From a virus (Duplodnaviria > Caudoviricetes): DNA of 64,000 nt. The notes beneath the pieces were generated by a model. That model was not told the origin of the DNA and made no database searches. It was given only the letters and a program-made list of their open reading frames with translations. Positions within the stretch are counted from its first letter, which is position 1; the number at the start of each line of letters is the position of its first letter. A program made the position numbers and the translations under genes. Positions 49,849 through 58,219 of this stretch are shown here, one piece after another. Location of the stretch: positions 1 through 64,000 of the IMG/VR virus record IMGVR_UViG_3300021399_000005. One strand, given 5' to 3'.

Positions 49849-50220
49849 ATGTATACTTATGATGATTTGTTTAATTTATTCTGGAACAAAGGTTCTTATT
49901 CTTTTGATAGGGCTGTACACGACATGTATCCTTATAAAATCAAAAAAGAAAAAGACAAAATAGTATTAATTCACAACGTAGTAGGAATTAATGAAGATGA
50001 CTTGATTATTGATATTGAGGAAAAAGATGGAAAAAATTATTTGGTAGTAAAAGGAGATACTAAAGACGAGGTCTTTGGAGACTACTCTATTAATTCCTCT
50101 TTTGAAATTAAACCAAATAGTTTTGAAAAAATTCAATATGAAGTTAAAAATGGAATTCTTCGCGTTTATTTGTTTAAAAAAGAACCAGAAGAAAAAACTT
50201 TACAAATCGAAAAGATTTAG
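49849..50220 (+). CDS. Small heat-shock protein (Hsp20/alpha-crystallin family)
   Basis: P.Y.I......L...V.GI..DDL.I....L.VKG..SF.........V.NGILRV.L.K.EPE...LQI pattern; AGGAGG RBS; no TGA. Confidence 0.8.
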   Translation: MYTYDDLFNLFWNKGSYSFDRAVHDMYPYKIKKEKDKIVLIHNVVGINEDDLIIDIEEKDGKNYLVVKGDTKDEVFGDYSINSSFEIKPNSFEKIQYEVKNGILRVYLFKKEPEEKTLQIEKI

Positions 50221-50251
50221 TATCATGGCGCGCATAGTAGCGCGCTTATAT

Positions 50252-50537
50252 ATGGGAGTAGTTTCAATGGTAAAACGATGGTCTTCAACCTGAAGGGTTA
50301 CTTCGGAAATTGGTGCCTTATAGTGGGGACATTGTAAGTGAAGGTGATGATATCGGTGAAACCTAAGTCTTTTAGATATGGTAATACCGAGGGAACGAAA
50401 GGCCCGTAGAGACTAGATAATCACCCGACTAGAACAGTCGAAGATATAGTCCAGCCCACAAACATAAAAATGGCGATGAAAATCGTAGATGGGAAGCAAC
50501 ACCATATTTGGGGGTTCGAATCCCTCCTCCCATGCCA
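50252..50537 (+). tRNA. tRNA-Trp(UCA), UGA-decoding suppressor, split by a group I intron (exons 50252-50285 and 50497-50537; 75 nt spliced)
   Basis: Acceptor ATGGGAG/CTCCCAT, G73, encoded CCA; D stem GTTT/AAAC; anticodon stem ATGGT/ACCAT; spliced loop CT-TCA-AC; T arm GGGGG-TTCGAAT-CCCTC; 4-nt variable loop. Confidence 0.9.
50286..50496 (+). ncRNA. Group I self-splicing intron (211 nt, no ORF) inside the tRNA anticodon
   Basis: Preceded by U and ends in G; core elements ATCGGTGAA (P), AATACCGAG (Q), GTAGAGACTA (R), AAGATATAGTCC (S); P7 GACTA/TAGTC; P3 GGTGAT/ATCACC. Confidence 0.9.
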
Positions 50538-50575: not shown

Positions 50576-50621
50576 AAAAATAGGGGAGTAACTTTAATTA
50601 GTTACTCCCCTTGCTTTTTTT
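50576..50621. terminator. Bidirectional terminator at the convergence of the + and - gene blocks
   Basis: AAAAA-t-AGGGGAGTAACT-ttaatt-AGTTACTCCCCT-tgc-TTTTTT. Confidence 0.7.
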
Positions 50622-53327: not shown

Positions 53328-53882
53328 TTAAGAACCCTCGGTTAATAACTGTTGTAAGAATAGTGCACCCGCCGTATTGCCTAAAACTATTGTTAAATAT
53401 TTTATTATATTTATAAAACTAATATTAATTAAAAGGTATGGAAAATCTGCAATACAGTGTTCAGCACCAATTAAAATAAATCCCATTACACATAAGACTG
53501 TTATTAAATCTTGTTTTATTGTTACTGCTAAATGAATTAAAATTCCGCATAAATAGGCTTTTGCGAATAATGCCAAAAAGTCTTTTGAAAATTTTGCGGC
53601 TGCCGCAGTTTTTAATAATTCAGCTAAATTCTCGTTAGCTATACAAGAGAAAAAAACTAATGCTCCTACTCCAATTAAGTTTAAGAGTAAAACTTTCGTT
53701 TTATAATTCCAAGTAAATTGAGGAAAACCAACTTTTCCAGTAAATAATGGAAGTTTTAATTTTATAATAGATAAAAGTCCAAGACTAAAAAGAAAACTTC
53801 CTATAATTGAATTTTCTGCGGTTAAGTTGGCAACTACGCCAATTCCAATTAATATTCCAGCTAAAACCATTATCTTCTCCAA
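53328..53882 (-). CDS. Formate/nitrite transporter (FNT/FocA-like), compact form
   Basis: LAGILIGIG, FSLGL..LFTG, CGILIHLAV, FILIGAEHCIAD, GNTAG motifs; multiple TM segments; start at 53882 or 53870. Confidence 0.85.
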   Translation of the reverse strand: MEKIMVLAGILIGIGVVANLTAENSIIGSFLFSLGLLSIIKLKLPLFTGKVGFPQFTWNYKTKVLLLNLIGVGALVFFSCIANENLAELLKTAAAAKFSKDFLALFAKAYLCGILIHLAVTIKQDLITVLCVMGFILIGAEHCIADFPYLLINISFINIIKYLTIVLGNTAGALFLQQLLTEGS

Positions 53883-56800
53883 TCTTTTAAAGACTCACTA
53901 TGTTTAATTCTCATTTCAGTTTCTTGTTGCTTACCTAGATTGAAAGCAGTTTTATAGTCACCAGTTAAGTAACCTGTTACTCTACGCAATCTTTGAATAT
54001 TTTTGCTTCCACAAATTGGACATGTGTCATTCATCTCATCTGTGTATCCGCAATCTAAACAGGTATCATTTGGAACATTTATAGCGAAATAAGGGATATC
54101 CTTGTCCATGGCATAGTTGACAATAGATTCTAATGCATCAAGATTATTTTTAACAGTAGATTCTAATTCTACATATGTAATGCAACCAGCGTTACTATAT
54201 CCAGTTAACTCTGCCTCAATATCAATTTTTTCAAAAGGTGACAAGTTTTTCCAAACCGGAACATGGATTGAATTAGTAAAGAAATCATTTTCTGAAATAC
54301 CTGGTAATTTTCCATATTTTTTCTGGAATGCTTTCATTGCGGTGTAGCACAAATTCTCTGCCGGGGTGTAGTACACACCAAAGTTCAAATGTTCTTCTTG
54401 TTTAAACTGTGCGCATCTGTCTTTGTAAAGCTGTTCAATACGTTTTGCTAATTCCATGCCCCTTTTTGTTGTGTGGTCACAACCGATAAGAATTTGAAGC
54501 GTTTCCGCGAGGCCGATTTGGCCAATAACTAGTGTACCATGTTTAAGCGCACTACGCACACCCTCTTCAGGTTTATAACCTGACATTACGCCATTTTCAT
54601 ACATAAATTTTGCTGAATTAGGACTTTGTGAACACATATATTCGTATCTTTCTTTTAACATATCTCTTGCTTCATGTAATTTAGTATCAAGTAAAGACAT
54701 AAAATTCTCAACAGCATCTGCTTCGCCAGTAGCATCATACTCTTCTTTTGCAGCGTTTAATGCATCCATAGCTAAGAAAGGTAATAAAATTGTAACTGGT
54801 GCTAAGTTTCCTCTACCATCCTTCTTTTGCGGATTAACTCCAGGTTCTGCATTGATGTCTGCGCCGTTATATGTTCTGCACATTTTCTCTTATGTTACCA
54901 TAAGAACTGACTATATCTTCTATCTTTCGATAGCCTCCCGCTTGGACCTGGTGCTTATCTCCAGGCCTACTCCCTTACATTCATCAGGGATAGTCGATAC
55001 ACTTTATTTTATAAGTTCTATAATATATCCATCTGGTTGTGGACGTTTTTTTTGGACAATTTCTGAAATTTTTCTTCTTGATATTGGTAAATTCTGTTCT
55101 GCCTGGCTATAACTTTTATAAACTGTTATTTCTCCTGTTTTTAAATTAGTTACTTTTATTTTATTGCCAGTGCGTTCATGATTTTTTTTAACTGTATAAT
55201 CATCAATATATTCATCTTGTTCGTATGCGATAAGTCATTCATCTTTATATAAACTTTTTACTTTATGTAAACATCTCCTAGAACAAAATTGATGATTTGT
55301 TTCATTAAAAAAGTCTCTCATCTGCGCTTGTGTTTCAAAATGATATTCTTCACCAGTATTAATATTTTTACATTTTACTCCTGTTGCATTTGGATTGTTA
55401 CCGCCTACTTTAGACTGTCTAATTTTTTCTTTAATTAAAGACAATTCTTCTGGAGTTTTTGTTTGATATGTGTTGCCACCGCTTTTATATTCTGCAGCAG
55501 TTTCATTATATCCATTTTTTATACTATCATAATAAATAATTCAATCATGTTCTTTTTTTGTTAACTCTTCTTGACTTGTAGCAGTATCAATAACTTCAGT
55601 AACAAAAGAATCTGGTTTATAATACCTAATAGCTCTTGCAAAATGAGTATCAATGACGTTGTTTAAAGCATCTGTTTGATGACGTTTTCATCTGCTTTCT
55701 AATGAATTAACAGTTTGTCCAATATAAACTTTGTTATTTTTTGTGTTTGTTATTTTATATATTATCATTTTTATTAAACCTCCTATGCTTTCATTTTTAT
55801 TTAAAAATGTGCGGCATAAATTTAATAAAAATTGTCCAAAACTTATAAAATCTTAGCACGGTCTCATCCTGTTTTACGAGGACCTAACCGTTAGCTTACA
55901 ATATTTTTGTAAACACCCGCGAGCGCGGTTCAAGAGGTTTTAGATGAGCTACAGTTTACACTTACCCATCGTGCTTACGTATGTCTCAGGATCGTTACGA
56001 TCATACCCTGCATTAGTAGACCAGTCAACATTTACATAGTTTGGATATAATCTTTGCGCAGTTGACTTTAAAGCCAATCTAAATAAATCATAGTTAGGGT
56101 CACCTGGCGCACGATTAACACCTTTCATACATTGGAATATACCACAAGGGAAAATTGATGTTTTATGTAATTTTCCAAGACCTTCAATAGAAACATTTAG
56201 GATTTCTTCAGTAACCATTTTACCCTCTGGGAGAGTGCATGTGCCGTAGTTGATAGATGTAAAGGGTAATTGGTTACCAGACCGTGATTGTAATGTATTA
56301 CATTTGCATTCACACAAGTTCGTTAAGCTTGTGCAGTTCTCTTATGAACTTCTTTATGTCGCCATAAAGATTAGACTATATCTTCATCCTCTTTTGAGGA
56401 GGTTACCATTTCGGATTACTTAATCCTACTCTCCGTTTTATGGAGATAGTCGTTAGGCATTTATCGTATCATCATAATATTTTAAGTGGTAGCCCTTTAA
56501 GGTTTTACCTCTACCATTGCATAATTTTGAAATGTTTGTCGCTGGAATTCCTAATTGTCTACTACACTCTTGAACAGATTCATAAACAGTATTTAATTCT
56601 TCACAATAAACTTTTCTTTTGTTTGGATAATTTTGAGATAATTTCTTTTTCTTTTCTTCTGAACAGGGAACATGTCTATTTTGAGCCGCAATAGATAATT
56701 TTTGTTTATGCTCATCAGTAAATTTTCTTCCTTTTTGAGCATTACTTATTTTTTTCTTTTTTTCTTCAGAACAAGCATGTCCCAATCCATTTTTATTGCC

Positions 56801-58219
56801 CATTAAAGCATGAGAAATTTTTTCTTTAGTTTCTTTATTCATAGAAAATACTTCTCCGCCAGAAGTAGAATTATATCCATATTCTCTATTCATTGCATTA
56901 AATTTTTGTATAAGTTCTTGCTCTTTTAAACAAGCTTCTTCTTTTGTTAAATTAGTAAACAAAATATTATGTTCAAAATTATCCCAACCATATTTTTGAA
57001 TTGCTGAATAAAAATGAGGACTTGATTTATAATTGCATCCATTTGAACCCCATCTTCGTTCTGGTATTTGAGATGTTATGCCAATATAAACTTTATTATT
57101 TATTTTATTTTTATGTTGATAAACAATATACATAAAGCCCTCCTTTCTTTTAAATAAATGATACGAATTTAGCACGGAGTTGTCTACGAGAGAGTTTCTC
57201 CGTTTAGGTAACTATGTTCTTAACATTACTGTTAAGTCGCCCTAATATTTAAGGTTGTGGTACATACCTTCAACGGCCTGGTGAATTTCTTTTTTTGTCA
57301 TTGCCATTGCATATTTATGAGCGCTTTTGTCTGCGTACAAACTATCATTATAAATTGAATAATCCTCTGGGTCTATATTATAAGTCCAACACTGTGGGTC
57401 TGTTTGTTGTTCATTAATACAGATTCTATCAGGTTCTCCATTAAAAAAGCTTATTTTTTCTGGTGTTAAAAAAGTTAAACCATCTAAATAATGTTTCCAA
57501 AAAGATTTTCTTACATATGGCACCATAGTCCAGTCAATATGGCTTGCGGAAACTCCTCCAAATTGTTGTAAAGATTGAAGCTGAAAAATTACTGCAACAA
57601 GTTGAAAAGCAGTATTTACTGAATTGGCTGGACGCACATCAGTTTGACGAGTATTAAATCCTTCCGCAAGTAACTTATCAAAAGGAATCGTAAGACAATT
57701 ATGCATTCCGATTGCGTAACTGTCTAAGTCATGAATATAAATGTAATTATTTAAATGATTATTTCGTGACATTTCTGACATGCAATAATCAAGAGCAAAT
57801 TTCTTGGTTAAGACTCTATTAGCTTCACCCATTCTTCCACCAAAAGAGCGTTCATCAACATTAGCATTTTGGTTTTGAACATCAGTTGCATCAAGTTTTT
57901 TTGCAACTTCTTGCATAAACTGAGTATTATATTCTCTTACTTTTGTTCTATCATATCTATATTTAATATATGCTCTAGCAACATCTTTTCTTTTACAAGA
58001 CATTAACCCCTGTTCAACCAAATCTTGAATTTCTTCAATTTTTAACATATGGTCTTGTTTCTCAGCATAATCATAAATATAATCTGCAATGTTTTTTGCT
58101 TTTGTCATGGCATATTCTTCTATCTTACCATCAACATCCTGGAAAGCAGCTAAAACTGCACTCTCAATTTTACTTTTGTCAAAATTTTTAATTCGACCAT
58201 CTCGTTTAATAATTTTCAT
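53870..58219 (-). CDS. nrdD: Anaerobic (class III) ribonucleotide reductase, three exons (58219-57252, 56300-55964, 54880-53870; 771 aa spliced)
   Basis: ATP cone, YIHDLD..NC, HNL^NTLQSRSGNQLPFTSINYG, TMG^CRT, TPAENLC, CxxC..CxxC, RRVTGYL glycyl-radical motif; exon lengths sum to 2316 nt, in frame. Confidence 0.95.
55004..55768 (-). CDS. GIY-YIG homing endonuclease in intron 2, 254 aa (three TGA=Trp)
   Basis: AGGAGG RBS; MIIYKITNTKNNKVYIGQT...SRW(TGA)KRH...E...GYN; TGA at 55690, 55543 and 55237; TAA 55006-55004. Confidence 0.85.
55791..55840 (-). promoter_or_regulatory. Candidate late promoter inside intron 2
   Basis: TTTGGACAATTTT-N24-TAAATAAAAATGA, same spacing as 38617-38667. Confidence 0.45.
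56301..57251 (-). mobile_element. Group I intron 1 of nrdD (951 nt)
   Basis: Splits AAC-CT^T-AAT-ACA; U before and G at the end; CTAACGACTA (R) and GAAGATATAGTCT (S). Confidence 0.9.
56453..57133 (-). CDS. GIY-YIG homing endonuclease with NUMOD3/NUMOD1-like repeats in intron 1, 226 aa
   Basis: MYIVYQHKNKINNKVYIGIT..RRW..GYN; 'SEEKKKKIS' repeats; AGGAGG RBS; both Trp are TGG. Confidence 0.9.
   Translation of the reverse strand: MYIVYQHKNKINNKVYIGITSQIPERRWGSNGCNYKSSPHFYSAIQKYGWDNFEHNILFTNLTKEEACLKEQELIQKFNAMNREYGYNSTSGGEVFSMNKETKEKISHALMGNKNGLGHACSEEKKKKISNAQKGRKFTDEHKQKLSIAAQNRHVPCSEEKKKKLSQNYPNKRKVYCEELNTVYESVQECSRQLGIPATNISKLCNGRGKTLKGYHLKYYDDTINA

Follow-up and report, generated by a model that had tools for sequence, protein, structure and literature searches.

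A group I intron divides the anticodon of a probable opal suppressor tRNA gene in a TGA-recoded phage

We studied a split tRNA gene (50252-50537, + strand) in a 64,000-nucleotide stretch of viral DNA, here called the window. It comprises the first 64 kb of IMG/VR record IMGVR_UViG_3300021399_000005, a complete 166,804-bp phage with direct terminal repeats. The gene encodes a tRNA with the anticodon UCA, and a group I intron lies in it between U34 and C35. We consider it probable that the split gene is an opal suppressor and that its intron is an inherited passenger, selfish or neutral, that was not built as a switch of the genetic code.

Results

In its default mode, ARAGORN found no tRNA in the window, and Rfam gave no match there at gathering thresholds. 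When introns were allowed, ARAGORN reported a tRNA-Trp(tca) at exactly 50252-50537. The Rfam model Intron_gpI (RF00028) was matched over its full length at 50290-50467 with 40 bits (E value of 1.2e-8 for an 801-nt region and 6e-10 for the genome). We set the splice sites by the group I rule, according to which a U precedes the 5′ splice site and a G is the final base of the intron. Cuts after U 50285 and G 50496 excise 211 nt, and the joined exons measure 75 nt. The 5′ exon (50252..50285, +) comprises the 5′ strand of the acceptor stem, the D arm, the 5′ strand of the anticodon stem, and C32, U33 and U34. The 3′ exon (50497..50537, +) supplies C35 and A36, the 3′ strand of the anticodon stem, the variable loop, the T arm, the 3′ strand of the acceptor stem, G73 and an encoded CCA. 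In normal mode, ARAGORN calls the 75-nt product an intronless tRNA-Trp(tca). The minimum-energy fold of the product is a cloverleaf with the anticodon loop CU-UCA-AC. CAAC is repeated at the two junctions, so the product is the same wherever within this repeat the cuts fall. A reading made earlier from the letters and predicted reading frames of the window (the sequence-only reading) had claimed two tRNA halves around a 211-nt group I intron between U34 and C35, and both ARAGORN with introns and the splice rule bear this out. ARAGORN's own placement of splice sites was unreliable. It gave a 94-nt product for the window gene, and its anticodons for split genes were often wrong, for example "Stop tta" for Leu(UAA) or Ile(UAU) genes and "Cys gca" for UCA genes.

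A UCA anticodon also occurs naturally in tRNA-Sec, which has a long variable arm and an acceptor/T geometry of 8/5 or 9/4. The spliced product does not share these features: its 75 nt form a class I cloverleaf, the geometry is 7/5 and the variable loop has 4 nt, so this identity was rejected.

The intron (50286..50496, +) is IC3-like and has no open reading frame (ORF); it runs from C+1 to the terminal omega G (50496), as indicated by the Rfam match, covariation and the minimum-energy fold. Its helices, all given here on the + strand, were derived by comparing relatives. The 5′ strand of P1 (50283..50288) consists of exon CUU and intron CAA, with the splice site after U 50285, and faces the internal guide sequence UUGGUG (50310..50315). 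The pairs are, in order, C-G, U × U, U.G, C-G, A-U and A-U. The U(-1).G wobble of group I introns is formed by U 50285, which is U34, and G 50313, in the same layout as in the tRNA-Leu intron of this phage (guide UUUGAG). P1 is invariant in eight lineages, so covariation neither supports nor opposes it. The UUG of the guide also pairs with CAA, with which the 3′ exon begins, to give P10, which accounts for the CAAC direct repeat. The omega G is conserved in all lineages. Within the P1 loop lies a hairpin (50290..50306; CUGAAG/CUUCGG with the loop GGUUA) that varies in sequence and length among lineages.

P2 (50317..50338) has nine base pairs and a GGGA loop, with double-sided changes in six of the nine pairs. 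GGGAC (50324-50330) was considered as a guide sequence and rejected, as this stretch forms part of the covarying loop and stem of P2. The strands of P3 (50343..50348 and 50420..50425) are 100% paired in the covariation alignment, and two of their six pairs are double-changed. P4 (50353-50357 with 50386-50390) is invariant and fully paired, and it surrounds P5 (50362-50381), so that the two together span 50353..50390. P5 holds CCUAAG...UAUGG, which we take, by its likeness to the Azoarcus intron, to be the 11-nt receptor motif for a GAAA tetraloop. P6 (50391..50405; GGG/CCC with an inner C(GAAA)G) is also invariant across lineages. The guanosine-binding helix P7 joins GAGACUA (50409..50415), in which A 50410 is bulged, to UAGUCC (50447..50452); the latter lies inside the conserved AAGAUAUAGUCC element and is placed by the Rfam match and by covariation. 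P8 (50426..50440) has 5 bp and the loop AGAAC, with four of five pairs double-changed. P9 (50455-50458 with 50490-50493; 50455..50493 overall) surrounds the P9a hairpin (50473-50486), which carries a GAAA loop at 50478-50481; double changes affect two of four pairs in P9 and four of five in P9a. When the intron is folded by itself, its minimum-energy structure contains every helix outside the pseudoknot (the hairpin of the P1 loop, P2 to P6, P8, P9 and P9a), with a z-score of only -1.5.

Relatives were collected from IMG/VR by an exact scan for the 3′ exon, a degenerate pattern scan for the intron core and a synteny search with an alignment of the Hsp20-like protein encoded next to the tRNA. 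A search with a single Hsp20-like protein reached only near-identical contigs, and the alignment query extended this reach. Scans of viral contigs with a 15-mer of the ligated junction and a 14-mer of the 5′ junction gave, among the matches listed, chance matches only, with no tRNA or intron. The covariation alignment (A3) comprises eight phage sequence lineages. In the P1-P9 model, 95.3% of cells pair, 20 of 51 pairs are double-changed and 48 cells carry a double change. Slid controls, in which the 3′ partners were moved by one to three columns, paired in 29-40% of cells and had one to four double-changed pairs; none of 500 shuffles reached the observed values of pairing and covariation. As the model was built partly from the same sequences, the paired percentage is favoured, and the double changes are the stronger evidence. 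Covariation was found in P2, P3, P5, P7, P8, P9 and P9a, including both helices of the P3/P7 pseudoknot, with P1, P4 and P6 invariant. In P7, a single pair covaries; it has switched from C-G to G-C or G.U in L341:1900-2177, L349:1903-2181 and L350:1904-2178. This switch caused the exact core scan to miss these three loci, and the pattern counts given below are therefore lower bounds.

A pattern search for the ligated anticodon arm together with the T loop identified an intronless 72-nt tRNA(UCA) in three contigs, L333-L335. Over the junction, this tRNA reads GGTCTTCAACACCAT, which is exactly the predicted ligated sequence, and it scores 62 bits with the Rfam tRNA model. At the level of sequence, the intronless ortholog confirms the predicted splice junction. 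The window and L333-L335 share the order Hsp20-like gene, hairpin, tRNA(UCA), convergent 215-amino-acid (aa) gene, RuvC and dUTPase. L333-L335 are also TGA-recoded, since their ORF cover rises from 0.66-0.76 to 0.90-0.93 under code 4.

The sample based on the Hsp20-like protein contained 23 loci, 21 of them with enough downstream sequence. The tRNA(UCA) begins 32-41 nt past the Hsp20-like gene in all 21. Seventeen of these loci are split by the intron (about nine sequence lineages), and four are intronless (two lineages). The intronless lineage that is testable for recoding consists of three contigs, all of them TGA-recoded. Another intronless gene in the family slot (L346:1897-1991) is a 95-nt variant with an extra arm. 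The long tRNA(UCA) variants L310 and L346 hold, at the position of the variable arm, a hairpin with a tRNA-Trp-like loop containing CCA; L310 is a split tRNA(UCA) with an ORF-bearing intron from another phage family, and L346 lies, without an intron, in the same slot as the window gene.

We placed these lineages in a FastTree phylogeny of four concatenated neighbour proteins (725 columns, midpoint-rooted, no outgroup). The intronless L333 clade is sister to the intron-bearing L315 with a support of 0.95 and is nested among intron-bearing lineages. In a short core alignment of low resolution, the UCA-tRNA introns of the family form one clade, apart from the Leu intron of this phage. The simplest history would be a single old gain of the intron with occasional precise loss; repeated gain is the alternative.

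The window has a GC content of about 32%, and ORFs of at least 150 aa cover 0.51 of it under code 11 and essentially all of it (1.00) under code 4. On the + strand, from 1 to 49.6 kb, the ORFs match tail, tail-fibre, virion-structural and endolysin families. The window's + strand ORFs contain 204 in-frame TGA versus 77 TGG codons. The sequence-only reading had stated that most virion and lysis genes need UGA to be read as Trp, and we indeed found at least one in-frame TGA in 24 of the 28 virion and lysis ORFs on the + strand of the window. The - strand ORFs, from 50.6 kb onward, include RuvC, dUTPase, nrdD, the alpha subunit of DNA polymerase III and a helicase, and have 12 in-frame TGA versus 37 TGG codons in the window. 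In the genome, no TGA, as sense or stop codon, was found in the ORFs at 60-80 kb, and TGA-rich + strand genes return at about 130-166 kb. TGA-rich late genes and TGA-poor early genes are the pattern published for TGA-recoded phages of standard-code hosts (bioRxiv 10.1101/2021.08.26.457843). The three features by which an opal suppressor is recognized occur together here: the UCA anticodon, ORFs that require TGA as Trp and early genes that avoid TGA. BLASTN of the locus against GenBank phages gave no match.

The identity set of bacterial tRNA-Trp consists of G73, A1-U72, G2-C71, G3-C70, G4-C69, G5-C68, A9 and the anticodon C34 C35 A36 (PMC9976931). The spliced tRNA has G73, A1-U72, G3-C70, G4-C69, G5-C68, A9, C35 and A36, and differs at U2-A71 and U34. 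G73, A1-U72, G5-C68 and A9, as listed in the sequence-only reading, can all be read in the sequence, together with G3-C70, G4-C69 and the encoded CCA. Relatives keep G2-C71, and the frame AGGGG...CCCCUG is common to all. As a second line of evidence on the amino acid, the endolysin was aligned with 111 homologs, in which the background frequency of Trp is 2.3%. Three of the seven TGA columns have Trp as their commonest residue (with one tie): position 58, where 110 of 111 are Trp; position 31, with 31 of 65 non-gap rows; and position 190, with 40. Four of the seven columns are led by aromatic residues, which are also frequent at a fifth. In this alignment, the TGA columns fit Trp and would oppose Gly. 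The alignment of the endolysin with PDB entries gave nothing informative on Trp positions.

Within the phage genome, ARAGORN with introns allowed did not find a second UCA tRNA, an intronless copy of which the sequence-only reading had named as evidence that would overturn it. The genome has 24 other tRNAs, all intronless, none of which reads UGG or UGA. Genes for tryptophanyl-tRNA synthetase (TrpRS) and release factors were not found in it either. Because the sole UCA tRNA gene of the phage is split, splicing is obligatory for suppressor function. Between tRNA-Tyr and tRNA-Thr, at about 105961-106032 (-) of the genome, lies an aberrant tRNA-like sequence with a CUCCAAA (CCA) loop. Nine extra nt follow its acceptor strand, and its D arm is unusual; it appears only at the relaxed threshold of ARAGORN and does not match the Rfam tRNA model. 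This sequence may be the phage's reader of UGG; as a reader of UGA it is a weak alternative.

We also examined 70 IC3-type cores, 69 from IMG/VR contigs and the window's own, which are not a random sample of tRNA genes. The cores were re-mapped by the rule of U(-1) and terminal G, plus P9; 21 of the 70 were left unassigned automatically, and six of these 21 were then placed by hand. The host genes were about 30 tRNA-Leu(UAA), 11 tRNA(UCA), at least seven tRNA(CUA), two tRNA-Ile(UAU), one Ser(UGA) and one Arg(UCU). The amber tRNA(CUA) genes, split by the same intron family after U35, with a GGAG guide that matches exon CUCU, lie at L280:6540-6835, L324:2036-2330, L276:6917-7260 and L318:10720-11033 on the - strand, and at L287:4531-4836, L320:5315-5606 and L296:436-740 on the + strand. 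ORF cover increases under code 4 at the UCA loci and under code 15 (TAG = Gln) at several of the CUA loci.

Insertions of the intron type abound in this phage, in tRNA-Leu(UAA) and nrdD. Its tRNA-Leu(UAA) gene (genome 110146-111002, -; L008:638-1494) is split after U34, in the same layout, by a 771-nt IC3-like intron with an HNH ORF. The guide of this intron, UUUGAG, pairs perfectly with CUU/AGA; its Rfam score is only 19.5 bits because the HNH ORF splits the core. The nrdD gene (window 53873-58219, -) is in pieces, with its N-terminal part at 57245-58219 and its C-terminal part at 53873-54889. Two GIY-YIG ORFs lie between the parts, at 56456-57211 and 55007-55852; the latter has three TGA and no TGG codons. 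There is also a weak group I match at 54888-55050, between the nrdD pieces.

The gene directly upstream of tRNA(UCA) encodes the Hsp20-like protein (49849..50217, +; 123 aa; Pfam HSP20, 21.3 bits) and is the syntenic anchor of the slot. In 21 of 21 loci, this gene has no TGA and encodes a single invariant Trp as TGG; neighbouring late genes mix TGA and TGG. A candidate sigma-70-like promoter (TTTACA, 16 nt, TATCAT; 10 of 12 matches) overlaps the end of the Hsp20-like gene (50199..50226, +). With 18 such matches found versus 11.6 expected, they occur often in AT-rich DNA of this kind, so that the candidate is weakly supported. A GC-rich hairpin (50228..50245, +; GCGCGC, 6-nt loop, GCGCGC) lies 6 nt upstream of the 5′ end of the tRNA. 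When the upstream regions of eight lineages were compared, a hairpin was present 6-9 nt 5′ of tRNA(UCA) in every lineage compared (window, L026, L270, L309, L315, L326 and L333). Its position is conserved, but the GCGCGC stem of the window is unlike GTAGAGAA.../...TTCTCTAC of other lineages. The hairpin might mark a site of processing, terminate the late operon or belong to a promoter. Downstream, a 12-bp hairpin resembling a bidirectional intrinsic terminator (50582..50611) is found at the convergence of the late (+) and early (-) genes.

Discussion

We propose the following model for the split gene. The UCA tRNA, derived from tRNA-Trp, would let the in-frame UGA codons of late mRNAs be read as Trp in a standard-code host. 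The precursor would fold into P1-P9, and free guanosine would attack after U34, which forms its U.G wobble with the guide UUGGUG. Through P10 (CAA with UUG), the same guide would next bind the 3′ exon, the terminal G 50496 would be displaced, and the exons would be ligated to ...GGUCUU-CAACACC.... Host TrpRS would charge the spliced tRNA. The intron would be a long-resident element that is vertically inherited, and selection on the tRNA would keep its ability to splice. Self-splicing, charging with Trp and the lack of a regulatory role are the parts of this model that we infer.

Several observations weigh against this reading. The Rfam match to Intron_gpI (40 bits) lies below the gathering score of 50 for RF00028; the check with Infernal/Rfam and ARAGORN with introns, which the sequence-only reading had proposed, thus recovered the gene at its exact coordinates together with a group I match under the threshold. 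The RF00028 seed is without bacterial sequences, and cut-offs of 18-20 bits have been used for tRNA introns (Williams 2020, bioRxiv 10.1101/2020.01.27.920355). The spliced tRNA has U2-A71 for G2-C71 and U34 for C34, so efficient charging by TrpRS is presumed. In P1, the U33 × U mismatch (50284 versus 50314) stands beside the wobble pair in eight of eight lineages, whereas pairing in P1 is perfect in the Leu(UAA) and CUA tRNA introns of the same family. Some helices also compete with P1. In the window and L026, UCUUCA (50282-50287) can pair with UGAAGG (50291-50296), which excludes P1; in other lineages, a helix of 4-6 bp with double-sided changes joins intron positions +3 to +8 to positions 26-31 of the tRNA (window 50277-50296; columns 26-42 of alignment A3). 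The mismatch and the competing helices, some of which covary, could make splicing slow or conditional. Moreover, the intron is old and is the majority state (about 9 of 11 lineages), as a useful element would also show.

These last points are the basis of a different explanation, in which splicing gates a switch of the genetic code. Slow or conditional excision, dependent on guanosine, Mg2+, folding or a factor, would delay the suppressor and set the onset of late proteins and lysis. That any UCA tRNA of the phage requires splicing would suit such a gate, as would a P1 weakened by U × U in every lineage, competing helices, in part covarying, that lie over the 5′ splice site or over the exon strand, and the retention of the intron in most lineages. 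The gene upstream is TGA-free at all 21 loci, so that this unit could be expressed before the switch. The comparative data speak otherwise. In sister phages, the slot is occupied by a tRNA(UCA) gene that lacks the intron, and their testable lineage is equally recoded; the intron family resides mainly in ordinary tRNA-Leu(UAA) genes; and an ORF-less intron should in any case persist, given the rarity of precise loss. The compensatory changes show only that splicing is selected. We therefore regard a gated switch as unlikely. Much the same can be said of a tuned brake, which is improbable on the present evidence, in which the U × U defect of P1 and the competing helices would make excision rate-limiting or dependent on the state of the cell (GTP, Mg2+, co-transcriptional folding). 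If it were true, the ribozyme would set the supply of mature UCA tRNA, and hence the late programme with its UGA codons and lysis. The sequence-only reading had gone further and proposed that the intron acts as a timer or checkpoint and is indispensable to the phage. The timer does not sit well with a slot that is intronless in four loci and split in 17, with a testable intronless lineage that is TGA-recoded. That the intron itself is indispensable is not supported either; only its splicing is, for as long as the intron sits there. In the survey of related phages that this reading had called for, UCA loci gained ORF cover under code 4, and the intron was not constant. Also, the intron is not special to the suppressor, as the same family occurs in ordinary tRNA-Leu(UAA) genes, including the phage's own with its HNH ORF. 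A regulatory role for the intron is unproven, and the comparative data disfavour it, although a modulatory role is conceivable.

Two further explanations carry less weight. The intron might be protective, either by keeping a toxic suppressor silent where splicing fails or by shielding the anticodon loop from host anticodon nucleases. Indirectly in favour, suppressors (11 UCA and at least seven CUA genes) make up about a quarter of the 70 cores, far above their share of phage tRNA genes, but a scan for core patterns does not sample tRNA genes at random, and intronless alleles exist; we hold this to be very unlikely. Least probable of all, and scarcely credible, is that the split gene is a dead relic and that UGA is decoded by other means, such as a host factor or a tRNA-like gene with a CCA anticodon (a Hirsh-type decoder). 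The CUCCAAA-loop sequence described above, detected by relaxed ARAGORN only, and the sub-threshold Rfam score of the intron would fit such a relic. A relic would decay, however, and here the exons and helices are conserved with compensatory changes, across lineages that share just 45-60% identity in the adjacent proteins; without exception, the slot contains a tRNA(UCA), with or without the intron. A suppressor with a passenger intron is our preferred reading.

The arrangement joins two known things, the IC3 introns of tRNA genes and the suppressor tRNAs of phages. The sequence-only reading had equated the position of the intron with that of the classical tRNA-Leu(UAA) intron, and this holds. 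The cyanobacterial and plastid tRNA-Leu(UAA) IC3 intron ("Leu.3Ug", CUU/a...g/AAAA; bioRxiv 10.1101/2020.01.27.920355) is inserted, as here, after U34, between positions 34 and 35, and has the same exon end, CUU. In both, P2 comes after a short guide, the P3-P9 core is compact and the last base is G; the phage's own tRNA-Leu(UAA) gene contains an intron of this class, with an HNH ORF. The present intron differs in its host gene, which is a phage suppressor tRNA(UCA) of the Trp type and not a cellular tRNA-Leu, and in its guide, which is UUGGUG instead of the GAG type, giving U × U at -2 and a P10 suited to CAA.

The IC3 intron of Azoarcus pre-tRNA-Ile(CAU), a model for which crystal structures exist, has its GUG guide directly 5′ of P2, closes P2 with a GNRA loop and P9 with a GAAA loop, and carries CCUAAG...UAUGG in P5. 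The same type of guide, loops and P5 receptor is readable in the window, a likeness that we regard as a lead. The two differ in the site of insertion, which in Azoarcus lies after position 36 of the tRNA-Ile anticodon.

The suppressors of recoded phages (bioRxiv 10.1101/2021.08.26.457843; PMC7886860) resemble the present system in reading TGA as Trp in structural and lysis genes, in leaving replication genes in the standard code and in being phage encoded. Those suppressors were found with tRNAscan-SE as uninterrupted genes, whereas this one is hidden by a group I intron. In studies dating up to 2025, suppressors have been detected in only about 35-40% of recoded genomes, and the remainder has been put down to undetectable tRNAs (bioRxiv 10.1101/2021.08.26.457843; PMC7886860; PMC12386605). 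Theta (HDV-like) ribozymes next to the tRNAs of recoded gut phages (PMC10879173) likewise tie a ribozyme to the maturation of a suppressor tRNA and have been proposed as part of a code switch. They cut at the end of the tRNA, while the present intron leaves from inside the anticodon, and introns are not mentioned in that paper (PMC10879173).

Group I introns in protein genes of phages (T4 td, nrdB and nrdD; Twort; SPO1) are tolerated in essential genes, often together with homing endonucleases, and the nrdD of this phage fits that pattern. The present intron differs from them in that it interrupts a tRNA gene. In 2014, all phage group I introns then known were in protein-coding genes, despite the many tRNA genes of phages (Hausner et al., PMC3984707). 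The group I introns of bacterial tRNA genes have since been extended from 4 to 21 types, in bacterial and archaeal assemblies and not in phage records (Williams 2020, bioRxiv 10.1101/2020.01.27.920355). In the full-text literature searched, outside of which most subscription journals lie, we found no description of an intron-split phage suppressor tRNA. Relative to that literature, group I introns in phage tRNA genes are new, as are the UCA and CUA suppressors that they hide.

An intron in a phage tRNA gene conflicts with the 2014 statement that confined phage group I introns to protein genes (PMC3984707). The intron-split suppressor escapes default ARAGORN and the Rfam tRNA model, and yet most loci of one phage family carry the gene in this form. 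Suppressors hidden by introns may account for part of the "missing suppressor" problem in TGA- and TAG-recoded phages, and intron-aware tRNA searches could narrow this gap and improve genetic-code calls for metagenomic phages. In the phage studied here, the late programme would depend on one RNA that is made via a ribozyme, which offers a testable system for code switching paced by splicing.

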